Positions 36,390 to 60,682 are shown, counted from the first letter of the stretch. The stretch is DNA of 62,854 nt from an uncultured Planctomycetia bacterium (GCA_964412635.1 CAYPPQ010000002.1:1-62854); one strand, 5' to 3'. Translations and numbers: made by a program. Notes: generated by a model not told the origin, from the sequence alone.

Positions 36390-36564
36390 GCCCAGAATCT
36401 ACCTCCCAAGGGGGTCCCAGGCCACGATGCTCCACGGGTTGACGCAGACTTCCTGAGACCGCACCTTTGGAACTGCTGTCAGGATGCGATCTGCGGAGCG
36501 TATCGTTCGACGGGAGATCCGCAACTTTTGCGGAGTTTTCAACGATTCAGGGGGGCTGAAGAGC

Positions 36565-42300: not shown

Positions 42301-42440
42301 ATGCTGTCGAGACCGCTTCCAGGCACCGAGAGCAGCTCGAAAGCTACCGCCAGGCCGTGAACACCATCTGGAAGATCGATCCGCAACAGATCGACCTGAA
42401 GGTGGTCCTGATCCGTAGTGGTGACATCGTCTCCCTCTAG
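39324..42440 (+). CDS. addA: AddA-like UvrD helicase-nuclease
   Basis: ASAGSGKT, DEFQDT, VGDPKQAIYGWRG, SYRS, MTVHQAKGL, YVAMTRA; nuclease GIIDRL...DFKTD...QLESY. ATGA overlap with addB. Confidence 0.9.
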   Translation: MTFSPHLLIRASAGSGKTHQLTSRFIGLLVAGEDPSGILAVTFTRLAAGEIMERVLIRMLQAIGNKESLEQLQQSLESVGFSRPTSDEVGAALRRLLEKLHLCTVSTLDAFFARIATAHTFECGLTPGWTILDNTQLDAVQTGAIQNLLSNGTDADARILMHRLNRGKSSSQVADQLQEIVSFGHAKYLEFPRDAWHNPEPIPAPPQADLDQARQLLQSVECPKTKTGTDHKNWRKALDGLSYWFEDPQRFDPLDLFESGIGKAVLAGQDRFHGVPISGDLFTVMEYVQAVARAQISRIIRTQNEATGELLSRFDHFRSLGLRARGGVAFQDIPQVLVIAGVLASANTILYRLDATTKHLLLDEFQDTSYLQFAAIRPLVEEIASDSAGGRSIFCVGDPKQAIYGWRGGRAEVLDHLEQYLLPGSDQTLEASYRSSPEILEAVNSVFGTLPSADWLVADRDAVSSWCENFHDHFTATGGPGDTPGHVVLKVAQHHEDRTREAAPYIDAIEEVERVRGIAPEATIAVLVRKNQNIARLVAALRERGIDASEEGGNPLVDSPAVGRIVALLELVEHPGDATMRLAVASSPLPDIAAKIGGFPAADWLQREVAVEVAETLRNRIHQQGISDAIAGLVSELAQSCGPEDRTRLQQMMEQIRIHDARGSRLENLIQHLRQHRLASPTGSTVQVMTVHQAKGLGRDVVILPELAAGWFKVLPKLLERSQVDDTTDSKLISRYVAEAHRTLLGCPYPEMHREVRRSRLQESLSVLYVAMTRARHSLTMIIPSEKKLTEASSAHLLWKTLGQEGSLTAGTILHEQGDPLSIKGVQGKQHQPAKEVKIPKLTGRAKAASKTPSHSTSFFTTDDSFRARSMGTLAHLAMEQIEWGAEEPDQLREVMLKEEPRIQHFFDESIEIVRHALQQECVKDLFDLQSARNRLGCQEGDEIVAEREIPFSCEMDGALFSGIIDRLVLRFHDQLPVAAEVIDFKTDRIAGDAVETASRHREQLESYRQAVNTIWKIDPQQIDLKVVLIRSGDIVSL

Positions 42441-44494: not shown

Positions 44495-44643
44495 CGACAA
44501 GACTTTCGGAACGAGGGATGGAAACTCCCGGGGGAGGGAGTGGTCGATCTCCATCCATCCTTCCGTCCGCTACGATTCTGTCAATCCACCGCGAGGCCGC
44601 TCGATAGCGTTGGACAGGATTGCTAGTTTGGAATCGTTTTTAC

Positions 44644-46038
44644 CTAGAGAGGATCACCGAGTCGACGAGGCCAGTGATCATCAGGTACTTCCGGTTGCTC
44701 TTCACTTGCTGGACGGATGTGATCGAGGAGGCCTTCCTCGACCTTGTCGTACTGAATCTGACCATCGATCACGGCCCACCGAACGTGTGTCATGTATGAA
44801 AGGATATCCCCATCCAAGATGATGAAATCGGCATCTTTTCCCACTTCGATGGAACCGACTCGATCGGACACACCGAGGATCCTCGCGGGCTCGATGGTGA
44901 TCGCTTCGACAGCCACATCTTCTGCAAGACCACCCCTCACCGCAAAGGCAGCTTCAAGTGGTAAGTGAGCGAGGTCCCTGCCAGCCAATCCCCACATGGC
45001 GATCCCGGTCGACCCGGGGAGTATCACGATGGGAACGCCGTACTCGTGCAGGATTCGAGCGTTTTCGATACTGGTGCCACTGTCGGAACCGCGACTCTCA
45101 TCGCGATCTCTTCGTGCCCTCGGAGTCAGCACGACCGATGCTCCACAGCGTGCAATCACTCCGGGATCGATCCACGCCTCTTCTGCCCCCTCGATGACGA
45201 GGCTGAATCCGAATCGGCGAGCGAGCGTGCACATCTCCCGGATATCAAAGATCTTGCTGAGTCGAACGAGAGCGACCGTCTCTCCCAGGATGAGGCCCTT
45301 CGCTACCGAATAGACCCCGCGAATCCACTTCTCGTCCGGTGCCTTCGCATCCGGATTCTCCTTCTTCTCGACCTGGTGGCGCTCTAGCTCCCGCAGGTGT
45401 TCCTGAACTCGTTCCAGTGCCCTGCGAAACTCACGTTTCTTCAGTGGATTCCTGCTGCTGTAGGAGATCGATGTGAAACTCTTCCGGCGTAGCGTCAGGT
45501 CGGTTACCGATCCTCGGATCAGTTTGGTGACGCGACTGCCATTCCAGGTCGATGTGATTCCTGCGGCGAGACCCATGGCGGTTCCCAGCGAGAAGGGATC
45601 CTGCGTCTTTTCCGCTTCTCCCGATCCCACCAAACCACTCGAACGAAAAGCAACGAGACCAGGGTAGACATGGTACCCCTCGGCATCGATTCTCTCGGCG
45701 GACTCAGGTATCTGTACATCGACTCCAAAGGAGGAGATCTTTCCGTCCTTGCACAGGACCGTGCCCGCGACGATCACCGGTCCGGTGACGGTATGGATGG
45801 TTGCGCCTTCGATGGCGAGGTACTCACCACCCGGTTCCTCCGGTTCGATCTCCTCTTTCGGGGGCTCGGGAGCTGGCGGAGGAGGAGGAGGCCTCCTGCC
45901 ACGACGTCTGCGCTGCGGTGGATCCTGTGCTTCGGCAACGCCGGCGACCTGGAGTGAGAGCCGGGCACCGAACGGGATGTCCGTGACCAGGAACAGGACT
46001 GCCAGCACCAGTAGAGATGATTTCAGTTTCAGGTTCAT
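44644..46038 (-). CDS. Secreted amidohydrolase-fold protein 8 (metal ligands absent)
   Basis: Signal peptide; IEGATIHTVTG; PGLVAFRSS in place of HxH; C-terminal ITIEPARILGVSDRVGSIEVGKDADFII. Start 46038 is an ATGA overlap. Confidence 0.85.
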   Translation of the reverse strand: MNLKLKSSLLVLAVLFLVTDIPFGARLSLQVAGVAEAQDPPQRRRRGRRPPPPPPAPEPPKEEIEPEEPGGEYLAIEGATIHTVTGPVIVAGTVLCKDGKISSFGVDVQIPESAERIDAEGYHVYPGLVAFRSSGLVGSGEAEKTQDPFSLGTAMGLAAGITSTWNGSRVTKLIRGSVTDLTLRRKSFTSISYSSRNPLKKREFRRALERVQEHLRELERHQVEKKENPDAKAPDEKWIRGVYSVAKGLILGETVALVRLSKIFDIREMCTLARRFGFSLVIEGAEEAWIDPGVIARCGASVVLTPRARRDRDESRGSDSGTSIENARILHEYGVPIVILPGSTGIAMWGLAGRDLAHLPLEAAFAVRGGLAEDVAVEAITIEPARILGVSDRVGSIEVGKDADFIILDGDILSYMTHVRWAVIDGQIQYDKVEEGLLDHIRPASEEQPEVPDDHWPRRLGDPL

Positions 46039-47372
46039 CGGCGATCCTCTCGATCCCATACGACCTCACCGGCGATGATCGTCTTCATCACCCTGGCACC
46101 CGGTTGTAGCGGATCCGCATCGAAGAGTACGAAGTGAGCCTGCTTGCCCGGCTCCACCGTACCCATCTCCTTCTCGAGACCGAGGAATCTGGCCGGTTCC
46201 GCTGTCACCGACGCGATGGCCTTCTCTGCGCTGAGCCCGTACCTCACCATCTCGGCGAGTTTCCCGGGGATCTCCTGCATCCCTGCGAGGTTGTCACTCC
46301 TCGGCAGGGTTATCAATCTGCAACCACTTCGAGAGAATGCCACTGGCATGTGGATTCTCGTATACGTGTCCGGAAGTGCACTCAGGCCCGAAGGCATCAA
46401 GAGAGTGGCTTCTCGTTCCGACAGGAGTTCGATCACTTCGTGAAATACTCCTCGACTGGTCGACAGCACGAAGCGATCGAGTGGATCCCGATCCTTCAAC
46501 TCTTCCACCCTGGAAAGTGCAGAGTCGAGATGCAGGATCAGTCCCGGCGTCGACGCCTCGAAGACGATCGGCAATGCATCGCTCTTCTCCTCGATGATCT
46601 TGACCAGTTCGAGGACTGCAGGGTTCATGGGAGGAGCAGTGAACTCCTTCTTCTCTGGCTTCTTGTCGTCCTTCTCTGGATTCTCCGCAGCAGCGTCGTC
46701 AGGCTTCTTCTTGGCCTCTTCCTCCGCTTTTTTCTTCGCTTCTTCCTGCTCCTTGTCCCACTTCTCCCGCGCTTTCTTGACCTTTTCGATCTCGCCGCGG
46801 GCGGCACCAAAAGCCTTATCGACGGAGGAGTAGATCCCGGAAGAACTTCTCCCTGAAAGTGGCAGGTACGCAGCCTTTTTCAGGACCCGGTCGCTGCTCT
46901 CCTGTGCGGTATGAACCACCACGGCATGCCCCGGGAATCCGGATCCACTGGGAATCAGCGTGGTGGCGACGAATCCGCACTCCAGGAAATCCTCCCAGGG
47001 CATCTCCGATTCGCGTAACTGGCGAAGTGGTGACCAGTCGCAGTGAGTACCATTGCGGGAGATGGGAGCGAGTCCGTAGGTCGACTTGGCGAGGATCATG
47101 CCGGCCATCAGGGTCTGGTTCCCCGCATCGATGACATCGGCGTTACTGGGATATTCAAGCTGGTTGCCGACCAGAGTGATCTTCCCCTCCTCGACGATCA
47201 CCTCACCTGGCTCGAGGATCTCACCGGTACCGGTGATGACCCGCCCAGCCCGAATCACGATGACTCGATCTTCGTCCGCCTGAACCGGTGGCGTTGATCC
47301 GGGTAGAGTCGCCGCCGAGACGAGAAGCAACAGTGCCAGGCAGTAGCAACGCTTCAGGGTGAAGTGGATCAT
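46035..47372 (-). CDS. Secreted amidohydrolase-fold protein 7 (metal ligands absent)
   Basis: Signal ending PPVQA; IRAGRVITGTG; AGMILAKST in place of HxH; VTAEPARFLG...GTVEPGKQAHFV. Start 47372 is a TGATG overlap. Confidence 0.85.
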   Translation of the reverse strand: MIHFTLKRCYCLALLLLVSAATLPGSTPPVQADEDRVIVIRAGRVITGTGEILEPGEVIVEEGKITLVGNQLEYPSNADVIDAGNQTLMAGMILAKSTYGLAPISRNGTHCDWSPLRQLRESEMPWEDFLECGFVATTLIPSGSGFPGHAVVVHTAQESSDRVLKKAAYLPLSGRSSSGIYSSVDKAFGAARGEIEKVKKAREKWDKEQEEAKKKAEEEAKKKPDDAAAENPEKDDKKPEKKEFTAPPMNPAVLELVKIIEEKSDALPIVFEASTPGLILHLDSALSRVEELKDRDPLDRFVLSTSRGVFHEVIELLSEREATLLMPSGLSALPDTYTRIHMPVAFSRSGCRLITLPRSDNLAGMQEIPGKLAEMVRYGLSAEKAIASVTAEPARFLGLEKEMGTVEPGKQAHFVLFDADPLQPGARVMKTIIAGEVVWDREDRR

Positions 47373-48622
47373 CAAAAGACTCTCTTCCCGCTGGCATCGT
47401 AGGTCACCTTGCCGTCGATCACCGTCAGTTCACAGGCGGATCGAGGATCGATGGGATCCCCGGTCCACAGGCAGAAATCTGCGTCGAGACCGACCGTGAT
47501 ACTTCCAAGACGATGATCCATCATCAGAGCCTCTGCAGGGATTCTGGTCACTCCCTTGAGGGCCTCGTACGGCGTCCAGCCGTAGTAGCAAGCCATCGAA
47601 GCCTGGTAGAACAGTTCCTCCTGGGGAATCACCGGCGAATCGGTATTGATCCCCAGTTGCCTGACCCCACCTTGCCACCAGCGTGCGGCGTTACCCATGA
47701 TGCGACGCTGAGTGCGATCGAAGTGGATCTGGCGCGGCCCATTGATGGTGTAGATCGATTCGTTCTCGTTGACGAGGGGAGCGACCTTCCACGCGTCGAA
47801 GGTGGAGTGATCGAGCACCGTTCGAATCCCGAAATCGCCTGCGACCATCTTCACCGTGGTCATCAGGACCTGATACATCTGGGTGTGAACCGAAGCGACC
47901 GTCTCCCTGCGAAAGAGTGGTCTGAACTCCTCCCAGTGAAGATCCTTGGGCGGTTCTACTTCGATCTCTCCCGCTTCCCATGCGGTGCGGGCGAGATGGT
48001 AATCCTGTGCCTTTTGCAGCGTCTGACGGGTGTTGAAATTCATGAAGGAACGACCGACCCCGTAGAAGTACCGTTCCGGATTACCTGCCTGGGCGATCTT
48101 CAGCGAGCCGGGGGCCTTCAACACCGCTTCCTCGACGGTACCGGTTCCAGCTGTCTTCAGGATCGTACCGAAGCCTGACATGTTGTTTCCACTACCTGGA
48201 ATCGTCAGAACCGTCGTCACTCCGCCGGCCCGTGCCCGCTCCATCTCGATCCCATCGGGAACGATCGACTCGAGAGTGCGCAGTCCAGGATTGGTCAGGT
48301 ACACGTAATCGTGAAGATCGGGACTCGATCCACCGGTGTGGTTGTGGCACTCCACCATTCCGGGGACCAGCCACAGATCGGGTTTCGAGATCACGGTGGC
48401 CCCGTCGGGAATCACCACATCCTTGTGAGATCCCAGCGCAGTGATCTTGCCATCGACGACGATGACCACTGCGTTGTTGATCACGCGGTCCTCGGCATCC
48501 ATCGTGACCACCTTGCCGACCCGGAACGCCATCGTCTCCGCAGCGACAGCCTCCCCCAGCGGCAGGAAGCCGGTCGCACCACAGAGCAATACGGTGAGTA
48601 AGTACATCGTGCAATTCCTCAT
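47372..48622 (-). CDS. Secreted amidohydrolase 6, the only paralogue with a full binuclear metal-site motif set
   Basis: PGMVECHNH (HxH), SLKIAQAGNP (Lys), SVHTQ (His), LDHST (His), INTDSP (Asp); GSITVGLDADF. ATGA overlap with the upstream gene. Confidence 0.9.
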   Translation of the reverse strand: MRNCTMYLLTVLLCGATGFLPLGEAVAAETMAFRVGKVVTMDAEDRVINNAVVIVVDGKITALGSHKDVVIPDGATVISKPDLWLVPGMVECHNHTGGSSPDLHDYVYLTNPGLRTLESIVPDGIEMERARAGGVTTVLTIPGSGNNMSGFGTILKTAGTGTVEEAVLKAPGSLKIAQAGNPERYFYGVGRSFMNFNTRQTLQKAQDYHLARTAWEAGEIEVEPPKDLHWEEFRPLFRRETVASVHTQMYQVLMTTVKMVAGDFGIRTVLDHSTFDAWKVAPLVNENESIYTINGPRQIHFDRTQRRIMGNAARWWQGGVRQLGINTDSPVIPQEELFYQASMACYYGWTPYEALKGVTRIPAEALMMDHRLGSITVGLDADFCLWTGDPIDPRSACELTVIDGKVTYDASGKRVF

Positions 48623-51345
48623 CGAGGAACCTCCTCTCCACCGATGAATACCCTCTTGAGACGACTTCCTGTCTCCATCGGGTGTCCATCCCAGATCAAC
48701 AGATCCGCATCCAGGCCCTTCTCGATGGAGCCGACGGTGTCGGAACTCCCCAGCGCCTCCGCTGCGCCGGTGGTCAGGGCTCGAAGTGCCTGATCAGCAC
48801 CCATACCCCGTTCCACCGCCTCCAGTGCTTTCCTCGGCAAGATCCTGGCACCGTCCGCCGCCACACTCTGGAAGGCGACATTGATCCCGCTTCTACTGAG
48901 AAAGGAACCGGGCGCAAATTCTTCATCCTTCAGGGAGTTGGTCGCCGCCGGCGGCAGGATCACCGACACCGATTTCTCTGCGAGCATCTCCCTGTAATAG
49001 AACATGTCCGCTCCGAGGCGCACCGTCAGTGGAATCTTGTTCTCGGCAAAGAAATCGATCACCGCTGCCGCAACGTCGAGGCCACTCGGTGTCACCACGA
49101 CGGGAATCTCCTTCTGGAGAACCGCTCTCACAGGTTCCAGTGCGAGATTCACCCGTGGAGGATTGGGACGGCCATCCTCGTCGCGCTTCTTGCGACGCTC
49201 GACCTTGAAAGCCTTCGCCTCCTTGCTGGTCCGGGTGCCGACCACATCAGCATTGAACTGCAAGATGGAGATGGTGCCGGTGAGAGAGTCTTCTCCCGTC
49301 AACTCGGCATTGATCCTCGGCTTCTCGGGGAGCACCCCATCTTCCACCTCGATGGATCCCTCGATGGTGGTTCCCGAGAGGGTTCCCACGACCCGCACCG
49401 GGATCGGAGGCGCAGGGTCGATGACCCTCCCCTCGAAATTGTCGCCTTGCAAGGTGATGGAGAGTTTCACCTCCTCCGGTTCCGGTATCGGACCACCACT
49501 GATGGACAGTTCCCAGATTCCGGTGAGAGGATCGGGGCCGCTCTCTTCGACGACCGTTTCCTCCACCTCCTCCTTCTTCTCGATCTTCTCCCCCGCAGCT
49601 TTCTTTTTCTTCCATTCCGCGAGGTCTTTCTCGTACTTGGTCCACGAATCGAGGTACTTCTTACCCTGTCCCAGCAACATCTTCACTCGATCGAGTGCAT
49701 CGTCTGGATGACCACCAACCTCGAGAAGCAGGGCCGTGACATCGCTACCGATCCTGTCGGAGCGAGTGCGCCCGGCGGTCTTCACCATCACTCCGGTGCC
49801 CGCCCCACGCTGCAATCGCTTGGGGGTCAGCAACTGGGAGGTCACGCCCGCCCTGGCGACACGATGTTCCGGCGCATCGGCGGCTCCGATGATCCGGCCA
49901 AGTCGATCTCCGGTTCCCGCCGAGGCCTGGTCTCCGCGCAACCCGAGGTGTCCGTAACTGTCGATGAAACCGGGAACGATGAATCCATCAGGACCGGCGT
50001 CCACCACCCTCGAATGGGGTGGATGGGGAACTCGATGACCGACCGCAGCGATCTTGCCATCTTCCATCAGCACCTCACCATCCTCGATCCGCTGATCTGG
50101 CGAGATCCAGATGGTTCCACCACGGATCACCGTGGCAGTTTCCTGGCGAGGAACCCATGCACGAAGACCATCGGCATAGACCGCCATCGGCTGGGCAGAG
50201 AGATTCCATGGTCCACGATTCCAGATGACGAGATCTGCGTCGCAACCCTCTTTCAGTTCTCCTACACGGTCTGCCACCCCGAGGATCCGTGCCGGATGCG
50301 AGGTGACCAGTGGAATCGAGTCGTTTGGATCCTCCATGTGGGCGGCGACTTCCATCAGTGCCCAGCGCAGTTGCCCGAGATCATTGCCTGGTGGTGCCAA
50401 GGCCACCATCGCATCCGCTCCCAGCAGAGGCCATCTGTCGAGCCCTTCAACCGGCTCATCGTTGAAACCGACATCTCCCTTGGGAGCAGCAACTCGAAGC
50501 ACCAGAGGAATCCCGGCGGCCGTCACAGCCGACGCAACCTCCTGGATCTCCTCACCTCCAACGATGTATCCGGGACGATCCTTGCCACGCATGAAGGAGA
50601 TCGCAGCCAGAATCTCGGCGGCCCGGGAAGCGACCATCCGCAACGGCAGGTCGGAAGCCCAGGCGGTGGCGAGGATCTCGTGCTCTGCTGGATCCTTCTG
50701 CGCCGCTCCGATCGCCTCACTCAGTGCCAGCAATCTTCCGATGCGACTGCGCGGCCTCTGAGGAGTGGGAGCGTTGATGGCTACATCACTGGATGCGGGG
50801 AAGGGAATCTCGAGCAGCGGCCTGGGATTGTCGACCGCATCGGTAATCGACAGGGACAGATCGGCCGTGCGACTCAGGATTCGCTGATGTGCGCTACCGA
50901 CCAGCTTGACCACGGCACCCTGTCCACTGAGAAGCCGATGCTCTCCAGGACTGATGTGTGCGCTGGTCACACCCGTTTCCAGCTGTGGGCGATAGTCCCC
51001 GTAGCGATCGAAACCATCCGCTGCCTGGAACGCAGCAGAGACATTTTCCGGTGCGGTATGGGGAGCGACGATGGAACTGGAAGCGGCAACCCAGCCCGGT
51101 GTCACGTAGGCATCCGGCCAGTGAATCAGCGGCAGATCGAACAGCATCTCGTCTTCGGATAACTGTTGCCACGGTCCGCTACGCACCACCTTGCCGTCGC
51201 GAACCGCCACCGCTCCATCGACGATGACATCGGTTCCAGTGTGGACGGTGCCCGCGCGGATCAGGAACCCATCGGCTGCCTGAGCCGATTGCACGGGCTG
51301 AACCAGGAGCAGTAAGATCCCCGTCAGGATCACAGGTAAACGCAT
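48619..51345 (-). CDS. Secreted amidohydrolase-fold protein 5: two tandem degenerate domains, with a beta-rich insert in the second
   Basis: Signal MRLPVILTGILLLLVQPVQSAQA at ATG 51345; the track's 51618 start runs into the upstream gene. Domain a has PGWVAASSS; domain b has PGFIDSYGH. Both end in GxLKEGxDAD/GSIEKGLDAD. Confidence 0.85.
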   Translation of the reverse strand: MRLPVILTGILLLLVQPVQSAQAADGFLIRAGTVHTGTDVIVDGAVAVRDGKVVRSGPWQQLSEDEMLFDLPLIHWPDAYVTPGWVAASSSIVAPHTAPENVSAAFQAADGFDRYGDYRPQLETGVTSAHISPGEHRLLSGQGAVVKLVGSAHQRILSRTADLSLSITDAVDNPRPLLEIPFPASSDVAINAPTPQRPRSRIGRLLALSEAIGAAQKDPAEHEILATAWASDLPLRMVASRAAEILAAISFMRGKDRPGYIVGGEEIQEVASAVTAAGIPLVLRVAAPKGDVGFNDEPVEGLDRWPLLGADAMVALAPPGNDLGQLRWALMEVAAHMEDPNDSIPLVTSHPARILGVADRVGELKEGCDADLVIWNRGPWNLSAQPMAVYADGLRAWVPRQETATVIRGGTIWISPDQRIEDGEVLMEDGKIAAVGHRVPHPPHSRVVDAGPDGFIVPGFIDSYGHLGLRGDQASAGTGDRLGRIIGAADAPEHRVARAGVTSQLLTPKRLQRGAGTGVMVKTAGRTRSDRIGSDVTALLLEVGGHPDDALDRVKMLLGQGKKYLDSWTKYEKDLAEWKKKKAAGEKIEKKEEVEETVVEESGPDPLTGIWELSISGGPIPEPEEVKLSITLQGDNFEGRVIDPAPPIPVRVVGTLSGTTIEGSIEVEDGVLPEKPRINAELTGEDSLTGTISILQFNADVVGTRTSKEAKAFKVERRKKRDEDGRPNPPRVNLALEPVRAVLQKEIPVVVTPSGLDVAAAVIDFFAENKIPLTVRLGADMFYYREMLAEKSVSVILPPAATNSLKDEEFAPGSFLSRSGINVAFQSVAADGARILPRKALEAVERGMGADQALRALTTGAAEALGSSDTVGSIEKGLDADLLIWDGHPMETGSRLKRVFIGGEEVPR

Positions 51346-51346
51346 C

Positions 51347-52939
51347 CTAGCGACCTCCCCCCGCCGGCTGATCCGTGGAACTGCCATCCGGTTCCTTCGC
51401 TGGCGGATCCTCGTCGGACTGATCCTTCTTTTCCGAACTCTCCTGGATCGGTTCCCCACTATCGCCCGATTTCTCTTCATCGCCGGGGACGGTTTCACCC
51501 TCTCCAGCACCCTCTCCCTCGGAGTCAGCTCCTTCTTCGGCTGCTGCCTCACCATCGAGAGGAGTCGGCGGCGTCGGCTCTTCTTCCACCTCGGGGAACA
51601 ACTTCTCGAGGCGTGCATCTTTTTCGCGGTCGTAGGCGAGGATTCCCTCGACGTACACCTTTTGCACCCACGAGTTGAAGTCGAGAGGATTGCCGGTCCA
51701 CATCACCAGGTTGGCGATCTTTCCCGACTCGATGGAACCGTATTGCTTGGCGATCCCGCACACCTCTGCGGCACCCAGGGTGATCTTGCGCAGTGCCTTT
51801 TGCGGATCGAGACCGGCGCGGACCAGGCGAGCCGCCTGGTAACCGAGGAATCTCTCCGGCATGGCATTGGAACGAGCCGGCTGAATCGCAAATTTCACCC
51901 CGGCCTTCATGTAGACCGCTGGAATGAAGGTCTCCTTCACGTCACTGGTGATGGGATCACGCTTGCGGAAGATCATCTCGGCACCGAGAACCACCGGCAA
52001 GTCCGCCTCGGCGATTTCTTCCACGGCAAGGTGAGAATCCCCTCCCATGACGAGGACTGCCCGTCCCTGCCACTGACGATCCTCGATCAGAGCCACAGCA
52101 GGAGCCACATCGGTGGCAGCTCCGCAGTAAATCCACGCTCCCAGCCTACCGTCTTCGAGATAGGAGAGATGCCGGTGTGCATCGTCCAGATCCTCGTCCT
52201 CGATCAGTTCCATCCCCTTGCTCCGCGCCTCTTCAGGAGGCAGTGGATCGACATCGTCTTCCTTCTCTGCGTGCATCTCGTACTTTGTCTCGGCGAGATC
52301 TTGTCGCCAGCGATCGAGTTCGTGGAACACCTCGCGCAACTCTGCAAGCTGGCGCTGTCTCTCGTATCCCGTCCTGGGAGTCGTTGACATTTTCAGCGCC
52401 ATACCAGGCATACTCGTCATCTCATCCGGGGAAAGACCGATGGGGTGGACGACTCGACTGACCCCACCGACCACGCAGTTATTGCCCTGCATGACATGGA
52501 TGGTAGTGACCCCATTGCGCAGAGAATCCTCGAAGAAGAAACGAGAGGGATCGATGGCGTCATAGACATCGACGAAGGGGGCTGAGGGAAGATTTTCGTT
52601 GGGTACATCTAGCCCGTCAGCACTGTGTGGATCGACAAACCCCGGTGCCAGGGTCATGCCGGTGCAATCGACCTCCATCGCATCGTAGGGAATCGCCATT
52701 GCCCCATCGCCGACGGCGGTGATGATTCCATTCTCCACCAGAACCACGCCACCCTCGATGGTCGGTCCCGAGACGGTGATCACCGTACCTCCGGTGAATG
52801 CGACCTTCGAGCCCCTTTCCGTCGCCTCGGCGGCGGACAGGGTGACGAAAATGGTGACCAAAACGGCAATCACCAGTGGGAGTGTCTTCATGTTATTCAG
52901 CTTCATCGCTTGCTTGCCTCCAGGGATCCTCATGATCAT
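51347..52939 (-). CDS. Secreted amidohydrolase-fold protein 4 (partial ligands) with a long acidic disordered C-tail
   Basis: Signal ending SAAEA; PGFVDPHSA keeps one His; ALKMS keeps the Lys; later His/His/Asp are replaced; GSIESGKIANLV. Start is 52939 (ATGA overlap) or 52906. Confidence 0.85.
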   Translation of the reverse strand: MIMRIPGGKQAMKLNNMKTLPLVIAVLVTIFVTLSAAEATERGSKVAFTGGTVITVSGPTIEGGVVLVENGIITAVGDGAMAIPYDAMEVDCTGMTLAPGFVDPHSADGLDVPNENLPSAPFVDVYDAIDPSRFFFEDSLRNGVTTIHVMQGNNCVVGGVSRVVHPIGLSPDEMTSMPGMALKMSTTPRTGYERQRQLAELREVFHELDRWRQDLAETKYEMHAEKEDDVDPLPPEEARSKGMELIEDEDLDDAHRHLSYLEDGRLGAWIYCGAATDVAPAVALIEDRQWQGRAVLVMGGDSHLAVEEIAEADLPVVLGAEMIFRKRDPITSDVKETFIPAVYMKAGVKFAIQPARSNAMPERFLGYQAARLVRAGLDPQKALRKITLGAAEVCGIAKQYGSIESGKIANLVMWTGNPLDFNSWVQKVYVEGILAYDREKDARLEKLFPEVEEEPTPPTPLDGEAAAEEGADSEGEGAGEGETVPGDEEKSGDSGEPIQESSEKKDQSDEDPPAKEPDGSSTDQPAGGGR

Positions 52940-54483
52940 TTCAATCCTCCACCTGCATTGAAGGAAATCACTCCTTCATGGAGAACTTTTTCAACTCTTG
53001 AGAGGGACGAGAACGGAGTTCCGCTCCAGACAACCAGGTCCGCCTTCTTTCCTGCTTCAATCGTTCCCACCATCGTCTCGATACCGAGTAAACGAGCAGG
53101 ATTCTGTGTCACCAGTTGGAGTGCTTGGCGCGGATCAACCCCGTGGCGGATGGCGAGCATCACCTGGCGGGCGAGACCCTCCTCACCCCTCAGATCCTGA
53201 GCACTCAGCGACACCTCTACCTCGGATTCGATCAGATCCCGGAGGGTACTGAGTCGGGAATCACGACTCTCGTTGGTACCTGCCAGGATGCCGCTGGGGC
53301 TGTCGTAAACGGGACCGAACACCACATCGACATCACGACTGGCGAGCAGGTCGACTCGTTTCCAGGCCTCGACCGGATCTTCCAGTATGAAGTTCAGACC
53401 GAACTCTCCGCTGAGCCGGAACGCGGTCTCGATGTCGGGAGCGGTTCGTGCCTGGATGCGCAGAGGGATCTCCCCGGCGAGCACCTGCGACAGAACCCGC
53501 GACGCTTCAGGGCTCGACGTGTCTGCACCGGTGGGGTCGATTCCATTGGCTCGCAGGAATGCGTCGTGAAACGCCTTCCGGAAGACCCACGCCACTCCCA
53601 TGCGGCTGTCGGGTCTGCGGGTGTAGACACTCACGATGTTGCGGAACGGACTTCGATTTCGCGATCCGTAGCGATAGGCATCGCTGCCCAGCACGCCCTT
53701 GACCGCGCCCGCTCCGATGTATCGGGATGCGAGTGGTCCCCCCGTCTTCAACATCGATCCTCGACTGCCGATCACCGCCGACGAATCGGGGCTGACATAG
53801 ACGGTGGTCACACCTTCACGCAGCAGCCGATCGAAATCGTCCGATCCCTGATCGAGGGCATCGAGAACTTCGAACTGCGGGACCACCTCACTCGATTGCT
53901 CGTTGACAACTCCACTGGGCGCTGGCACTCCGGCAGCTCGATTTCCGCTGACCAGGCTCTCGATCATCTCCTCGGTCGGATCATGCGGATGGGGATCGTG
54001 GTCTGGCCAGCCACAGTAGAGACACATCTCTTCCTCGACGTGCAAGGTCAGTGCTGGACAGACGGTTCCACAGGGGCACACGTCACCACCGTGATAGTGT
54101 TTCTCCAGCCCCATCGCCTTGAGAATCTGCAGTCGAGGACTCTCTCCCGGAAAATCGATGGCATCCGCCACATCGATGCGGGCGTTGGCATCGATCATTC
54201 CCGGCGTGATGTCGGAAACCCGGAGAATCGTGGCACCTTCAGGGGCGGTCGCCCCCGCCTGCACGCTCTGGATGGTTCCATCCTTGATGGTGATCAGTGC
54301 TTGCTCGACGACGGAGCCATCACCGATATGGGCCCGCTCCGCCAGGATGACCACATCACGGATCAACTCTTCTTCCGATGCGACGGCGCTCCCCACCAGA
54401 CAGAAGAGAGCCAGCATCGGCAGGAGCAACTGCCAGCTGCGATTGTTCAGCAAGGATCTCCGCCTCGGGACTGTACTGTTCAT
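52936..54483 (-). CDS. Secreted amidohydrolase-fold protein 3 (ligands absent) with a Cys/His-rich insert
   Basis: Signal with RRRSLL, ending SAVA; PGMIDANAR; GVTTVYVSP; AVKGVLG; VTQNPARLLG...GTIEAGKKADLV. Confidence 0.87.
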   Translation of the reverse strand: MNSTVPRRRSLLNNRSWQLLLPMLALFCLVGSAVASEEELIRDVVILAERAHIGDGSVVEQALITIKDGTIQSVQAGATAPEGATILRVSDITPGMIDANARIDVADAIDFPGESPRLQILKAMGLEKHYHGGDVCPCGTVCPALTLHVEEEMCLYCGWPDHDPHPHDPTEEMIESLVSGNRAAGVPAPSGVVNEQSSEVVPQFEVLDALDQGSDDFDRLLREGVTTVYVSPDSSAVIGSRGSMLKTGGPLASRYIGAGAVKGVLGSDAYRYGSRNRSPFRNIVSVYTRRPDSRMGVAWVFRKAFHDAFLRANGIDPTGADTSSPEASRVLSQVLAGEIPLRIQARTAPDIETAFRLSGEFGLNFILEDPVEAWKRVDLLASRDVDVVFGPVYDSPSGILAGTNESRDSRLSTLRDLIESEVEVSLSAQDLRGEEGLARQVMLAIRHGVDPRQALQLVTQNPARLLGIETMVGTIEAGKKADLVVWSGTPFSSLSRVEKVLHEGVISFNAGGGLK

Positions 54484-55688
54484 CGGTTTCCTCCCAGTTC
54501 GCTGATGGCTTCCGTGGAACGGATGGGAAGGCGCTCGCCTGCCACCCAGACCTTGAGAACCCGTGCTCCCGGATCGAGGGGATCGGTGCTGAAGAGCACC
54601 AGGTCTGCCCTCGCTCCCGGAGCGATGACACCGGTGTTACTCGCCTCGACAGCCCGCGCGGGATTGCTGAAGAGCGCTCTCCGCGCTGCGGCCGGGTCGA
54701 GTCCAGCCGCCACGGCGATGGCTGCGCTGCGTCTGAGGTGATCGGAATCGTGGCGCGGCAACCCTCCACGAAATGCCAGTTCGACCCCCACCTCGGCGGC
54801 TCGAACTGCAGTATCTACCGCTGCGGAATCAGCCCCTTCCTGGAAGGGGCCCACCACCATCAACGCATCGGTGCGAGCGGCGAGACGATCGATGGGAGAT
54901 CGTGCATCTCCGTCGTGGATCAGTACCGGAAGCGTTCCCCAGTTACCTTCTGATACACCGTTGGCTGCTACCGGTAACTGTCCCCAACCGGCATCGAGGG
55001 CCTGCCTCAAGTCGATCGCTTCGGGACAGTAGAGGAACCCGGGGTTGCTGCGGATGGTGTGGCTCGTCGTGCTCGTATCGTAGTGCAGCGCAGTTTTCCA
55101 CCGGGCGACCATCGACACCCGGGAGGTGGGCTCACGGGAGGAATCGAGAACCGAACCGGAGAGGGCGAAGAAGGGCAGATCAGTGCCGAGCGATACCGCT
55201 GCGGCATTCGACTGACACAGGAAGGTCGCCGTCTTGCCGTTGACCAGCCCGCTGGGAGCAGCGGCGATGGTGGTGTAGAGGATTCCCTCCCTGGCCGCCT
55301 GGCCCAGGTGGGGATCGGTCGGATCGAACCCCTCACTGGCAGACAATCCCCAGTCCCACAGCTTGGTCCCCGCCTGCAACGATCCGCGACCTCCAAGGGA
55401 GCCGAACAGATCGTGTAATCCGGGAGCGAGAATCGCTCCAGCGGGTGCTTGCACGGTGCGGAACTCATCACCATCCACCTGATCGGAGGGGATCACCCCC
55501 TCGATGTTTCCGTCGGCACCGACCACCACTGCCATTCCGGGACAGATGCTACCGTCCCCTGAAACCACCCCGACATCGGTGATGACGAGAGACTTCAGCG
55601 GCGCTGAAGAACCATGACCGGTTTGCCAGAAAGCCGTCGCCAACAGCGACGAGAAGAGCAACAGAATCACCGTCGAAAGATGCCGCAT
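54480..55688 (-). CDS. Secreted amidohydrolase-fold protein 2 (ligands absent)
   Basis: Signal MRHLSTVILLLFSSLLATA; PGLHDLFGS; LFSNPARAV...GVIAPGARADLV. Start 55688 is a TGATG overlap. Confidence 0.83.
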   Translation of the reverse strand: MRHLSTVILLLFSSLLATAFWQTGHGSSAPLKSLVITDVGVVSGDGSICPGMAVVVGADGNIEGVIPSDQVDGDEFRTVQAPAGAILAPGLHDLFGSLGGRGSLQAGTKLWDWGLSASEGFDPTDPHLGQAAREGILYTTIAAAPSGLVNGKTATFLCQSNAAAVSLGTDLPFFALSGSVLDSSREPTSRVSMVARWKTALHYDTSTTSHTIRSNPGFLYCPEAIDLRQALDAGWGQLPVAANGVSEGNWGTLPVLIHDGDARSPIDRLAARTDALMVVGPFQEGADSAAVDTAVRAAEVGVELAFRGGLPRHDSDHLRRSAAIAVAAGLDPAAARRALFSNPARAVEASNTGVIAPGARADLVLFSTDPLDPGARVLKVWVAGERLPIRSTEAISELGGNR

Positions 55689-57076
55689 CAGAAACTCCCT
55701 TCCCGGGTACCGGCAGGTCGCTGCCACAGCACCTTGCCGTTGATGATCACCCGTTCCGGACGAGCTGCCGGATCTACCGCCGGGTTACCGCTCCACAGCA
55801 CGACCTCGTTGCTGCCCCGGCGCAGCCAGCCTCCAGCGCGCCCCTGACTTCCCTGGCGGATGCCCAGCTGCAGCGGATTGGTGTCGGGGTCTGCCCCCGC
55901 TCTCTGCTGAAAGACTCTCCACAGGGAGGTGCTCTCGCCGCCACTACCCAGCGACCACGGGATCTCCGCCTCGTCGAGTCGGCTCAGCAGCGAGGGATCG
56001 TGACGAGGAGTGGCTCCTCGCTGGAACTGTCCGCTCCCTCCATCGAGGAGCAACTCGACATCTTCCAGTTCCTGGAGCTCTTCCAGCAGCAGGTGAGCCT
56101 CGTCCGCGCCGTGGATGATCGCCTTCAGCTGAAATTCCTCGATGAGGTCGATGGCATTCTGTATATCCTCGCTCCTGCGAGCGGTGATCAGCACCGGCAG
56201 ATCGTGATCGAGAGCCTTGAGAACCAGTTCACCAGCGGGATTTCTTCCCGGACGACCCGGCTTCTCGGGCCCCTTCTCCTCTTCAGCGTCCCCGTCCTTC
56301 TCGGACTCGTCCGCCTTCTTGTCATCCCCCTCTTCTCCCTCTTTCTCCTTCTTCTCCGCCGCTTCTTTCAGAGCTTCCAGATACTCCTCGAGATCTTCCG
56401 AGTAATCATCGGACTGATCGCGAAGATCTCGCGCCGAGATGAATTCCTTGCGCAGGCTCTCGTAGGTGCGAATCCTCTGGATGGAGCCTCCGACGCTGAG
56501 ATCGATGTGAAGCGCCACATCGTCATCGCTCGGCTTTCCGAAGCCACCATTGTCGCGCGCCTGTAGCGACACGGAGGTGACGCGACCGACGATTCCGGCG
56601 GATCCCTTCGGTACCAGGTGGACCCGGGTGATCCCCGAGGCGAGTACCTGCAGGATCTGTTTCGAATCGAAGCGGTCAAATCCATCCCAGGCCCTGTGGA
56701 TCGCTCCCCCCTTCGAGGTCGGCGTCAGGGTCAGTGACGAGGAGAGATCGGTCAGCCCTGCGGTGGCGTAGAGTCCACCCACCTTGGGCTTCCGAGCCAT
56801 CATGTTGCCCTCTGCGTCACTTCCGATCGCCTGGATGCGGCCCTGGCGCAAGACGATATTGATCCCCTCGGCGACGGTGCCGTCTGGCCGAGGCACGTGG
56901 ACCCCTTCCAGAACTACATCCCTGGCAAAGAACCCCTGTGCCAGCAGCGACGTGGAAGAACCACACAGCAGCATTAGCAGCAGACAGACCCTGGAGAGAT
57001 GGCATCCAGCGCGGACAGGAGATCCCCTGCCGACGCGCAACGGGAGAGAACAGTTGAGCTTCATCTTCGTCATCAT
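55688..57076 (-). CDS. Secreted amidohydrolase-fold protein 1 (ligands absent; C-terminal motif eroded)
   Basis: Signal ending STSLLA; AGLTDLSSS; SGITRVHLVP; LITARRSEDI; IHGADEAH. Likely start 57076 after an AGAGGG RBS. Confidence 0.8.
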   Translation of the reverse strand: MMTKMKLNCSLPLRVGRGSPVRAGCHLSRVCLLLMLLCGSSTSLLAQGFFARDVVLEGVHVPRPDGTVAEGINIVLRQGRIQAIGSDAEGNMMARKPKVGGLYATAGLTDLSSSLTLTPTSKGGAIHRAWDGFDRFDSKQILQVLASGITRVHLVPKGSAGIVGRVTSVSLQARDNGGFGKPSDDDVALHIDLSVGGSIQRIRTYESLRKEFISARDLRDQSDDYSEDLEEYLEALKEAAEKKEKEGEEGDDKKADESEKDGDAEEEKGPEKPGRPGRNPAGELVLKALDHDLPVLITARRSEDIQNAIDLIEEFQLKAIIHGADEAHLLLEELQELEDVELLLDGGSGQFQRGATPRHDPSLLSRLDEAEIPWSLGSGGESTSLWRVFQQRAGADPDTNPLQLGIRQGSQGRAGGWLRRGSNEVVLWSGNPAVDPAARPERVIINGKVLWQRPAGTREGSF

Positions 57077-57215
57077 TTTCCCTCTGATTTTCGGCCTGTT
57101 GACTGATTTTTGCAGATCCACCGCATCTCCACGCGGATCTCCTGTCCGCGGAAGAACGAGTACATCAGGGGCTCCCTGATCGGTCATGGTATCGCGAGAC
57201 GACCATCCGGCTCTC

Positions 57216-57234
57216 ACCCGCAGGTCCTGCGGGT
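57216..57234. promoter_or_regulatory. Perfect 9-1-9 inverted repeat ACCCGCAGG-T-CCTGCGGGT in the divergent amidohydrolase-operon/pdxS intergenic region
   Basis: The palindrome is read directly from the sequence; an operator role is inferred. Confidence 0.45.
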
Positions 57235-57467
57235 CTGCCAACAAAAAATAGGTCCCCATCTCCGAAAAATCCGGAAACTTCCCCAGGCACCTTGGATACT
57301 TCCCCAATGCAATCCGGCAGTTCTGACGTCAGGGTATCCTCTCCAATGGTTCCCTGAAAGTACTGTCTGGGCATCGATCCACTCGCATCCAGCACCCCGA
57401 GAAGGCAAGATCTGGTTTGATGCCAACAGGCGGGATCTCGATCCACCCGCCGGGAGAGGACCATACC

Positions 57468-58385
57468 GTGAACGATCACCGATCAGCACCGATGCGGGGC
57501 ACCGGCTCCAGTGAAGAATTCCGTACCAAGGTGGGTCTCGCAGAGATGCTCCGTGGTGGTGTCATCATGGATGTCACCAGCGCAGAAGAGGCCAGCATCG
57601 CACAGTCCGCAGGGGCTGTGGCGGTGATGGCTCTCGAGAGGGTCCCTTCCGACATCCGCAGAGACGGTGGCGTCGCCCGCATGTCTCCCGTCGACAAGGT
57701 GCGAGAGATCCAGCAAACAGTCACCATCCCGGTGATGGCCAAGGCGCGCATCGGACACTTCGTCGAAGGTGAAATCTTGCAGGCGCTGGAGGTCGACTTC
57801 ATCGACGAATCGGAAGTTCTGACCCCCGCCGATCACGCCCATCACATCGAGAAGAGTCGCTTCAAGGTTCCGTTCGTGTGCGGTGCTACCAACCTCGGAG
57901 AAGCACTGCGCCGCATCGGTGAGGGTGCAGCGATGCTTCGAACCAAGGGAGAAGCGGGTACCGGAGATGTTACGGAAGCGGTCCGCCACCTTCGATTGAT
58001 CCATCAGCAGATCCGCAATCTCACGCTGGTTCCTTCGGAAGAGTGGATGAGCATCGCGAAGGAACTTGGAGCTCCCTACGATCTGGTGTGCCAGGTCGCA
58101 CGAGATGGCCGATTGCCGGTTCCCAACTTCGCTGCAGGAGGAGTGGCAACACCCGCCGACGCAGCGCTGGTGATGCGCCTCGGTGCGGAAGCGGTATTCG
58201 TCGGATCCGGTATCTTCAAGTCGGAAGATCCGCTGAAAACAGCGCACGCCATCGTCCATGCCACCGCCCACCATGACGACGCACAGCAACTGGTCGAGGC
58301 TTCGAGTGGCCTGGGCGAAGCGATGCCTGGCATCGATGCAGCCAAGCTCCCGGATGAAGAGCGACTCCAGGTTCGAGGCTGGTAA
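57468..58385 (+). CDS. pdxS: Pyridoxal 5'-phosphate synthase lyase subunit PdxS
   Basis: [73 protein letters not shown]. Likely GTG start 57468 after GGGAGAGG. Confidence 0.97.
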
Positions 58386-58386
58386 A

Positions 58387-58959
58387 TTGTCTGTAAATTC
58401 GGTGGCAGTTCTGGCACTGCAGGGATCGGTCGAACCACATATGCGAGCGCTGCTCGATGCGGGAGCGAACCCTGTCGAACTGCGCCGACCGGAGCAACTC
58501 GACGGGATCTCCCATCTGGTCATCCCGGGCGGTGAGAGCACCACTCTCAGGCACCTTCTCGACCTCCACGATCTCTCGGAGAGGATCCCGCAACAGGTGG
58601 CCACGGGAGAACTTGCCCTGCTGGGAACCTGTGCCGGGGCGATCCTGATGGGCAGTCACTCCGAGGATGCACCGCAGCGCTGGAATCTCATCGACATCGA
58701 GGTGCAGCGCAACGGCTATGGCCGTCAGCTCGACTCCTTCATCGGTCCCGTCGAGTGGGTCTCCGGACCGACCGCCGGAGATGCCGAGGGGGTATTCATC
58801 CGTGCTCCCCGGATGCTCGATCCCTCCGACTCGGTGGAGGTGCTCGCTCGCAGGGGCTCGGAGGTGGTGGCGGTTCGTCAGGAGCGATGCGTGGCCTGCA
58901 CCTTCCACCCCGAATTGACCGCAGATAGGCGATTACACCGCTGGTTTCTGGCTCTATGA
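58387..58959 (+). CDS. pdxT: Pyridoxal 5'-phosphate synthase glutaminase subunit PdxT
   Basis: VLALQGS, PGGESTT, GTCAG (Cys), RNGYGRQLDSF, FIRAP, FHPEL. TTG start 2 nt after the pdxS stop. Confidence 0.95.
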   Translation: MSVNSVAVLALQGSVEPHMRALLDAGANPVELRRPEQLDGISHLVIPGGESTTLRHLLDLHDLSERIPQQVATGELALLGTCAGAILMGSHSEDAPQRWNLIDIEVQRNGYGRQLDSFIGPVEWVSGPTAGDAEGVFIRAPRMLDPSDSVEVLARRGSEVVAVRQERCVACTFHPELTADRRLHRWFLAL

Positions 58960-59068: not shown

Positions 59069-60682
59069 GTGAACACCCAACAAGCAAAGAGTGGCCGCAG
59101 AGTGGGAATCTTTGGCTGGGGACTCGTCTCCCCAGGGTGTCCCGACATCGATACCTTCCGCCACCGTCTATACGAGGGTGGATCGTGGCTGGAACCGTTC
59201 GAGGATTTCGGCCCCAGCAATTTTCTTGTCGGTCAGCCTCAGTTCGAATTCGAGAAGTACCACGAGTGGGTCGACGAGAGATTCCCTCCCAGCCGCTTCT
59301 CGCAACTACAGTCGAAGATGGGAGGCCCGACACTCTACGCGGTCGGAGCCTTCATCCAGTCGCTACAACAGAATCCTGGCATCGAGACTGCGCTTCAACA
59401 GATGGGTTCGGCAGCACACGTATACGTGGGAACCGGGCTCGGAGATCTCCCGACCATCTCCGAGGTCTCCTTGCAGGCGGACCGAGCTCAGCGTGAATGG
59501 GACGCCTTCTGGTCTCACCCCGAGCGTTGCCCCGCGCGCGCAGCCTTCGAGGCGGGGGATTCCTCCCCGGAGTTGCAACAATCTGCGCCGCCAGCCCCGG
59601 ACCAGTTGCCGGAGAGTGAGCGGGAAGAGGCTCGACGTGTCTGGAACAGTTTCTGGGCATCCCACTCGGCACCGCTGCTGGAGTACCTGTCGGCATTACG
59701 TGAGATCGAGAACCTGAGCGTCGAGGGAGAGGTGGAGGCGGGCAAATCGGCAGTACTCCGCGAGAAGATGAAACGCTCCGCCAGGTTGAGAAAGGACTGG
59801 GGCGCACCCACCGAACCGTGGGCAGCCATCAGTTCCAATGTGCTGTGGAATATTCACAGCGCTCCCGCCACCCAGATCACCATGATGGGCAAGATCACCG
59901 GCCCTTCCTTCGCCCCCGTTGCAGCCTGCTCCACCTTCGGGGTGGCTCTCAAGCTGGGACTCGACTCCATCGAACGAGGAGAAGCGGAAGCGGTGGTGAT
60001 CGGTGCGACCGATCCCGCCCCCTGTCCCCTCACCGTCGGGGCGTTCAGTGCCGCCAAGGTGCTCTCCAGTGACGGAACCGTTTCCAAGCCCCTCACCGGT
60101 CTGCGCGGAACCCACGTCAGTGGTGGATCGTGCGTGTGGATCATCGGGGATCTGGAAAAGATGAAAGCTCGCGGATTCGAGCCGCTGGGAATGGAGCCGA
60201 TCTCGGTTGGCCTCACTTCCGATGCCGACCACATCATCACTCCCAGTGAAGAGGGCCCGCAGGCTGCCATCGAGATGGCACTTTCCAGTGCCGGGGCAAG
60301 CCCGCAGGAGATCGCCACCTGGGATCTACACTGCACCGCGACCCCTGGAGATTACCTGGAGGTGGAAAACACCCGCAGGTTGTTACCGGAATCGGTGCTG
60401 ATGACGGCAAGGAAGGGGACTTTCGGACATGGAATGGGAACCTGCGGAGGCTGGGAGTTGACCGCTCAGATGCTCGCTTCCGAAAGCAGTTCCGTTCCCC
60501 CAACCGACCTGACCGAACCGGAGTTGAACCAGGAAATCGCCAGGGTTCACGACAACTTTGTCGGAGATACGCCATCACCCCTACCGGCAGGATACGCCGG
60601 AAAGCTCTCGATGGGGGTGGGCGGAATCAATGCCTGCGTCATCTCCCGACCGTGGAGTGAAGAAGACCGAGGTTCCAGGTAG
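59069..60682 (+). CDS. Stand-alone beta-ketoacyl synthase (FabB/FabF fold) with an internal insertion of about 110 aa
   Basis: Cys-His-His triad PVAACSTFG, WDLHCTATPGD, TFGHGMG; C-terminal KLSMGVGGINA. At 537 aa it is longer than a typical FabF of about 410 aa. Confidence 0.85.
   Translation: MNTQQAKSGRRVGIFGWGLVSPGCPDIDTFRHRLYEGGSWLEPFEDFGPSNFLVGQPQFEFEKYHEWVDERFPPSRFSQLQSKMGGPTLYAVGAFIQSLQQNPGIETALQQMGSAAHVYVGTGLGDLPTISEVSLQADRAQREWDAFWSHPERCPARAAFEAGDSSPELQQSAPPAPDQLPESEREEARRVWNSFWASHSAPLLEYLSALREIENLSVEGEVEAGKSAVLREKMKRSARLRKDWGAPTEPWAAISSNVLWNIHSAPATQITMMGKITGPSFAPVAACSTFGVALKLGLDSIERGEAEAVVIGATDPAPCPLTVGAFSAAKVLSSDGTVSKPLTGLRGTHVSGGSCVWIIGDLEKMKARGFEPLGMEPISVGLTSDADHIITPSEEGPQAAIEMALSSAGASPQEIATWDLHCTATPGDYLEVENTRRLLPESVLMTARKGTFGHGMGTCGGWELTAQMLASESSSVPPTDLTEPELNQEIARVHDNFVGDTPSPLPAGYAGKLSMGVGGINACVISRPWSEEDRGSR

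Follow-up and report, generated by a model that had tools for sequence, protein, structure and literature searches.

Among proteins of solved structure, the closest relative of the gene product considered here is PDB 3OOQ, a structural genomics entry for an uncharacterised amidohydrolase from Thermotoga maritima. The gene product, D, is encoded by gene D (52936..54483, minus strand; 515 amino acids), listed as paralogue 3 in an initial annotation of a 62,854-nucleotide stretch of DNA from an uncultured Planctomycetia bacterium (GCA_964412635.1, CAYPPQ010000002.1:1-62854; this whole stretch is referred to hereafter as the window), and it lies within an operon of eight tandem amidohydrolase-like genes, A to H. 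D and 3OOQ have in common a composite β-sandwich plus a triosephosphate isomerase (TIM) barrel, with a helical insert after strand β3. However, 3OOQ keeps the canonical HxH motif together with the β5 His, the β6 His and the β8 Asp, and has about 12 residues, with no Cys knuckle, where D has a loop of 89 residues. This loop, and in particular a cluster of Cys and His residues within it that may constitute a metal-binding knuckle, is the principal subject of the present analysis. As 3OOQ is itself of unknown function it provides no clue to a substrate, and literature searches on 3OOQ and on exported knuckle domains yielded nothing relevant.

Three further groups of described proteins merit comparison with D. 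The Raushel-type carboxypeptidases and prolidases (Cc2672, PDB 3MTW; Sgx9260, PDB 3MKV, 3FEQ and 3N2C; NCBIfam NF051886) belong to the same branch of the superfamily, and match D weakly in two regions, the sandwich at the N-terminus and the barrel at the C-terminus, with scores far under the family cut-offs (58 bits, where 500 is required). These enzymes have no Cys-rich loop, whereas D is without every catalytic ligand. The dihydropyrimidinase-related proteins (CRMP/DRP), to which a profile of D gives weak sequence hits, resemble it in retaining the amidohydrolase fold after loss of the metal ligands, and act as scaffold or binding proteins; unlike D, they are eukaryotic and cytosolic, with neither a Cys knuckle nor an operon shared with a catalytic paralogue. 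The loop itself invites comparison with the knuckles of zinc ribbons and rubredoxins (L37e/eL37, the rubredoxin-like domain of rubrerythrin, and HMBD, PF19335), which likewise consist of two knuckles, the second reading CPxCG or CxxCG[FYW]P, with a conserved aromatic residue or His between them; an alignment with L37 puts the Cys and His residues of D in register. However, the matches of D to these families are non-significant, and it differs from them in having an invariant Cys3-His set with C-x5-H spacing, and in that its module has been found only inside the D amidohydrolase family, in an exported protein.

The reading that we prefer, and to which a probability of about 0.5 is assigned, is that a structural Cys3-His metal knuckle, with zinc as the probable metal, stiffens the lid loop of an inactive amidohydrolase subunit that is exported by the general secretory (Sec) pathway. 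The evidence bearing on the fold and inactivity of D, on the conservation of the loop and on the route of export is set out in turn below, and is followed by the points that weigh on either side of metal binding.

The start codon of gene D is well supported, since a Shine-Dalgarno-like GGAGG read from the sequence (54490..54494, minus strand) precedes the ATG by 6 nucleotides, and the ATG itself shares an ATGA overlap with the stop codon of the upstream gene E; the N-terminus MNSTVPRRRSLLNNRSWQLLLPMLALFCLVGSAVASEEE is therefore considered to be real. The open reading frame, Pfam matches, profile comparisons and AlphaFold2 (AF2) modelling followed by Foldseek searching all identified the product as a protein with the amidohydrolase fold, of the same type as 3OOQ, and its signal peptide indicates export. 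Thus Pfam Amidohydro_1 and Amidohydro_3 (PF01979 and PF07969) matched D with 54.3 and 40.5 bits, exceeding their cut-offs, and a profile built from 121 D orthologues matched 3OOQ with an E-value of 3e-63. The AF2 model of full-length D, generated with the 121 sequences, has a confident core (318 residues with a predicted local distance difference test score, pLDDT, of at least 90), and Foldseek aligned it with 3OOQ at E 4e-31 and a template modelling (TM) score of 0.84 over the target. Both superfamily homology and the (β/α)8 barrel with its composite β-sandwich were therefore found in D.

None of the catalytic metal ligands was found. At the end of barrel strand β1, alignments to 3OOQ and to paralogue A (47372..48622, minus strand), the product of a gene in the same operon with an intact HxH site (ECHNH), β5 and β6 His and β8 Asp, placed a degenerate sequence D98-A99-N100-A101 (54181..54192, minus strand) where relatives have PG..D.H.H: the region reads PGMIDANARID in D, as against PGFVDAHSHIG in 3OOQ and PGMVECHNH in paralogue A. 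The same alignments indicated that the β5 His is replaced by Q or R, the β6 His by D or E and the β8 Asp by Q. Since the HxH motif, both later His residues and the Asp have all been replaced, D is an amidohydrolase by descent but, judged from its sequence and from the chemistry usual in the superfamily, a pseudoenzyme. The altered site is itself well preserved in the 121 orthologues, A99 being invariant and D98 and N100 each present in at least 90%.

Directly beyond this site the chain enters a hypervariable loop (53914..54180, minus strand; residues 102-190), which lies between β1 and a conserved A-G-V...EQSSEVVPH element and contains the Cys/His-rich stretch KHYHGGDVCPCGTVCPALTLHVEEEMCLYCGWPDHDPHPHD (53980..54102, minus strand; residues 128-168). 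The initial annotation had drawn attention to this peptide at about 53975-54105, with 5 Cys and 6 His, as lying just past a lost HxH site and as peculiar to this paralogue, and on each count the present data agree: the exact sequence is present in D, it follows PGMIDANARID in the loop after β1, and alignment revealed no insert at this position in the other eight amidohydrolase-like domains of the window. The five Cys (C136, C138, C142, C154 and C157) are the only ones in mature D and fall within 22 residues, while six of its ten His lie inside the stretch. When the sequence was shuffled, the Cys residues came to lie within 22 residues or fewer once in 20000 trials and a set of 11 Cys plus His in 41 residues in none of 20000, so that the clustering is far beyond chance. 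Within the stretch an accessory knuckle, C136-P-C138 (54070..54078, minus strand), precedes the core C142-x5-H148-x5-C154-x2-C157 (54013..54060, minus strand), which is the candidate Cys3-His metal site and is adjoined by G158, and a His/Asp/Pro-rich tail, HDPHPHD (53980..54000, minus strand; residues 162-168), ends it.

Comparison of the D orthologues established which of these elements are conserved. Nothing in the family varies more than the loop from β1 to the AGV...EQSSEVVPH element. The loop ranges in length from 28 to 187 residues, and its Cys content is bimodal in an all-or-none fashion (42 orthologues have no Cys, 12 have three, 38 have five and 16 have six). In 44 aligned representative Cys-bearing segments, from proteins with 42-94% overall identity to the query D, exactly four positions are invariant (44/44), namely C142, H148, C154 and C157, and G158 is present in at least 90%, giving the consensus C-x5-H-x5-8-C-x2-C-G. 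This core motif occurs in 67 of the 121 orthologues and is missing from 54, including one large clade with members labelled Pirellulales; mapped onto a neighbour-joining tree of the 121 sequences constructed from the core alignment, its distribution requires about three state changes, and within large clades it is stably inherited down to about 42% identity. Because the core is invariant where present and has been gained or lost only about three times, it can be regarded as a selected unit. The flanking elements are less constant: the equivalents of C136 and C138 are spaced as CxC, CC or CxxC according to clade and are absent from the 3-Cys clade, and the HDPHPHD tail is limited to the closest clade, consisting of the window protein and orthologues P0001-P0013. 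Conservation of the Cys/His pattern, which the initial annotation had proposed as a check, therefore extends to the C142/H148/C154/C157 core in 67/121 orthologues, but the tail stays confined to the nearest relatives.

The same distribution bears on the proposal in the initial annotation that the subunit had replaced its barrel metal site by the new loop. The barrel ligands have been lost in all D orthologues, the 54 without the Cys motif included; the loss being universal and the module not, the two are uncoupled, and a replacement in that sense is not what the family records.

The route of export was examined with reference to signal peptides of the twin-arginine translocation (Tat) type, in which an RR pair directly adjoins an h-region of low hydrophobicity and the c-region often contains a basic residue. 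The signal peptide of D (54376..54483, minus strand; residues 1-36) comprises the n-region MNSTVPRRRSLLNNRSWQ, the h-region LLLPMLALFCLVG and a likely cleavage site between AVA and SEEE, and its RRR (54457..54465, minus strand; residues 7-9) is the supposed twin arginine on which, in the form PRRRSLL, a claim of Tat export had been based. The likeness consists of an RR pair in the n-region with two hydrophobic residues two positions later: within P-R-R-R-S-L-L-N, RRSLL fits the loose pattern RRxhh but not the strict [ST]-R-R-x-F-L-K, there being no S or T before the pair and no Lys after it. D differs further from Tat signals in that nine mostly polar residues, SLLNNRSWQ, separate the RR from the h-region, which is very hydrophobic (mean Kyte-Doolittle value 2.87 for the best 12-residue window), and in that the c-region (AVA, then SEEE) has no basic residue and leads into an acidic mature start. 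A scan of the 45-residue N-terminus of D against Pfam and NCBIfam at E ≤ 10 gave no hit to the Tat models TIGR01409 and PF10518, bearing in mind that the speed filters of HMMER may lose very weak hits, and scans of the N-termini of six paralogues against the same libraries at the same threshold gave none either.

Corresponding data from the orthologues pointed the same way. A hydrophobic N-terminal segment is present in 116 of 119 complete orthologue N-termini, but RR precedes the h-region in just 26/119, a loose RRxhh adjoins it in 8/119, and the strict Tat motif occurs in 0/119. RR is lacking from 50 of the 67 motif-bearing orthologues, and no association between RR and the Cys motif was detected (Fisher p = 0.37 and 0.55). 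The claim of Tat export is accordingly not sustained: the signal peptide of D is most likely of the Sec type, and the D family as a whole is, as judged from these N-termini, predicted to be Sec-type.

This assignment narrows the range of possible cofactors. Since the family is overwhelmingly Sec-type, iron-sulfur (Fe-S) clusters and other cofactors assembled in the cytoplasm are unlikely, and an Fe-S cluster was rejected on that account. A c-type haem site (CxxCH) was also rejected, given that D reads CLYCG and that Gly follows CxxC in at least 90% of the aligned segments. The options left for a Sec-exported loop would be zinc or copper acquired after export, or disulfides, and the conserved Cys3-His mini-loop, together with two accessory Cys, probably holds one or the other, a structural metal ion or disulfides.

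Several properties of the loop favour the metal ion. Small tetrahedral metal sites are usually recognised by the combination found here of an all-or-none complement of Cys, a Cys3-His core that does not vary and a second knuckle of the CPxCG type with a conserved Gly, and the CPxCG knuckle with its conserved Gly is typical of rubredoxin and zinc-ribbon motifs. Two Cys knuckles conserved as a unit, CPCGxxCP and then CxxCG, are indeed present in D. The odd number of Cys, with three Cys plus one His as the minimal form, would fit a four-ligand metal site better than disulfides. Below the threshold of significance, the inserts of D orthologues resembled the Pfam families Prok-RING_1 (E 0.008), Ribosomal_L37e (E 0.016), RUBY_RBDX (E 0.05) and HMBD (E 0.15), and when the insert was compared with PDB sequences at E ≤ 10 the best match, likewise non-significant, was ribosomal protein L37 (E 0.4), with the pattern CxxCG...H...CxxCG[YW]P aligned. 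Such resemblances are to be treated as a lead and not as family membership. Modelled in isolation by AF2, the insert was compact, with a pLDDT of 80.6 in the best model. Taken as a whole, these observations make metal binding by the D loop well motivated, and we infer it from sequence patterns rather than report it as a result.

A search of 1.84 billion proteins with a profile of the insert recovered proteins of the D family, and the remaining hits were mainly eukaryotic C2H2 repeat proteins together with one SLH repeat protein, two hits being without a Pfam domain. These outside hits are repeated, composition-driven knuckle matches, and a mobile domain shared with other families was consequently rejected; because the matches beyond the family are mainly of this repeat-protein kind, the module is considered to be specific to the D family.

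A number of observations weigh against the metal knuckle. At E ≤ 10 in Pfam the insert has no significant match to any metal-binding family, the best hits (E 0.008-0.3) all being below the cut-offs, and Foldseek returned 0 hits in the PDB for a structural neighbour of the insert-only model. The other four of the five insert-only AF2 models reached a pLDDT of only about 65, and in the full-length model the insert has a pLDDT of 43-73, with residues 132-143 below 50, for which reason its geometry there is untrustworthy. H148 (54040-54042) is present in 109 of the 121 orthologues, including Cys-less ones in which acidic residues follow it (MHVDPEED, LHVGPPDDE); its conservation would thus not be explained by a ligand role alone, and it may not be a ligand of the Cys site at all. 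The absence of the motif from 54/121 orthologues means that its function is dispensable for the core function of the family. Finally, zinc coordinated by Cys is seldom encountered in the periplasm, an oxidising compartment in which CxxC pairs are generally disulfide-bonded.

On the preferred reading, D would be a Sec-exported, inactive subunit of the 3OOQ type belonging to a conserved eight-gene periplasmic amidohydrolase operon, and its long, fast-evolving loop after β1 would, from its position in the fold, lie over the entrance to what was once the active site. This loop would in many lineages carry a knuckle module in which an amphipathic helix, a turn rich in His and an accessory pair of Cys precede the C-x5-H-x5-8-C-x2-C-G core, the three Cys and one His of which would bind a single metal ion, most probably Zn(II), picked up after export. 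Fixed in a definite conformation by the bound metal, the loop would contribute to a surface at which a ligand binds or subunits meet. As envisaged, the Cys3-His site would neither be a Tat-dependent cofactor site nor be needed for the metallation of the catalytic subunit A.

Of the alternatives, a disulfide staple survives best and must be counted a definite possibility. After Sec export the Dsb system would oxidise the Cys residues, the resulting disulfides would rigidify the loop, and the His residues would be bystanders or serve some other purpose. The signal-like hydrophobic N-terminus of D and of nearly all its orthologues implies that the loop folds in an oxidising compartment, the 16 orthologues with six Cys have the even number expected of paired residues, and the insert matches no metal-binding family or fold. 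Nevertheless, odd Cys counts are the most frequent (five in 38 orthologues, three in 12), one thiol of the invariant Cys3-His set would be left unpaired if only disulfides were formed, and the conserved CPxCG knuckle with its Gly is characteristic of metal sites, all of which favours the metal knuckle.

A switch, in which the Cys3-His set reversibly binds Cu(I) or Zn, or undergoes oxidation, and the loop thereby gates ligand access or the activity of a complex, is considered unlikely. The loop follows β1, which in active relatives is the HxH strand, and by the known fold would therefore be placed over the former active-site mouth; extra flanking His residues (HYH upstream, HDPHPH downstream) are available in the nearest clade; and Cys2-His copper sites are known in periplasmic proteins of the Sco type. 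However, the flanking His residues are unconserved beyond that near clade, and the motif is missing from whole clades.

Least probable of all, and very doubtful, is the model of the initial annotation, in which D is loaded with Zn, Fe or Cu in the cytoplasm, exported by Tat, perhaps carrying partner subunits along, and acts as a metal sensor or donor: the loose RRSLL match, the conservation of the Cys/His motif in many orthologues and the presence in subunit A alone of a canonical metal site needing to be loaded are in its favour, but against it stand the scarcity of RR in motif-bearing orthologues and its want of association with the motif, the failure to find a strict Tat motif in orthologues or a hidden Markov model (HMM) hit, the very hydrophobic h-region and non-basic c-region, the signal-like N-terminal hydrophobic segment that each of the eight operon products has of its own, which renders hitch-hiking unneeded, and the behaviour of gene A. 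The last point is that A retains its HxH motif in every genome examined, including those designated L024 and L026-L028, in which D is without the Cys motif; the module of D is for this reason no obligatory metal donor for A, and the suggested sensor or donor role, for which little but the placing of the loop speaks, is left unsupported.

The operon to which D belongs (F-E-D-C-B-A-H-G; 44644..57307, minus strand) comprises eight tandem genes encoding nine amidohydrolase-fold domains, B being a double-domain protein, and is thus larger than was implied by the paralogue numbering of the initial annotation. Gene A is the sole paralogue with canonical metal ligands, and aligned over its full length at E 8e-38 with 3OOQ, which is its nearest relative of solved structure as well; on the basis of these ligands only gene A of the operon looks catalytic. 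It is also the most conserved member, with 56-66% identity in comparisons in which D shows 42-47% and E, F and H about 30%. An identical gene order was recorded in about 30 species-level Planctomycetota genomes, including members of the Phycisphaerae and Pirellulales, and the nearest relative of the window is a metagenome-assembled genome (MAG) of an uncultured marine Planctomycetota, the D protein of which is 93% identical. Literature searches found no description of this eight-gene operon.

Several entries for relatives in the PDB contain many chains (8 or 16 in 3MKV, 8IHS, 9L6P and 3FEQ, and 10 in 3OOQ), which by analogy suggests homo-oligomers, and the operon, with its eight genes, might specify a hetero-oligomeric counterpart of them. 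A more far-reaching proposal, to which we attach a low probability, is that of a periplasmic hetero-oligomeric machine consisting of a live A and seven dead paralogues, evolved from a homo-oligomer, in which the Cys3-His loop of D, as a redox site or one that exchanges Zn/Cu, would gate access to the sole active centre or regulate it; we know of no described counterpart to a metal- or redox-controlled pseudoenzyme subunit of this kind.

Considered alone, the loop is a modest finding, namely a lineage-restricted Cys3-His knuckle on the lid loop of a dead amidohydrolase, and structural knuckles are common in other proteins. Its main value is as a handle on the surrounding operon, which is the more striking object. 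Should the eight proteins assemble, they would clearly exemplify, in bacteria, the diversification of a homo-oligomeric enzyme into a hetero-oligomer composed mostly of pseudoenzymes, and the D loop would then be one of few subunit-specific features open to mutation and to metal, thiol or assembly assays.

The other paralogues have distinctive features of their own. In several of them, charged inserts rich in Lys and Glu occur at the same place in the fold, for example EKKEKEGEEGDDKKADESEKD in F (55688-57076, minus strand). An additional insert (GPDPLTGIWELSISGG...), about 110 residues long, is present in the second domain of B (48619-51309, minus strand), the C-terminus of C (51347-52939, minus strand) is extended by some 100 residues of acidic tail, and in G (44644-46059) an Arg/Pro-rich low-complexity stretch, PPQRRRRGRRPPPPPPAPEPPKEEIEPEEP, follows the signal segment; H occupies 46035-47375 on the minus strand.

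Two occurrences of the operon carry labels outside the Planctomycetota. A MAG labelled 'Bacillota bacterium' (L010, QNYK01000079.1) contains the whole operon, its D protein being 79% identical to that of the window, and is probably a mis-binned or mislabelled contig. A Gemmatimonadota chromosome (L002, CP070666.1) has a partial cluster, consisting of a 173-amino-acid C-like fragment, E, a Cys-less D and a 230-amino-acid C fragment, with B, A, H and G missing, which could represent either operon decay or partial transfer.

Upstream of the operon and divergent from it are genes for PdxS (SOR_SNZ) and PdxT (SNO) at 57417-58959 on the plus strand, beyond which is a ketoacyl-synthase-like gene (59069-60682). 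The opposite flank contains an AddAB-like helicase-nuclease pair (36484-42440) and a gene for an FG-GAP repeat protein (42437-44554), and the start of the window (56-11913, plus strand) is occupied by two very long open reading frames of 1700 and 2252 amino acids.

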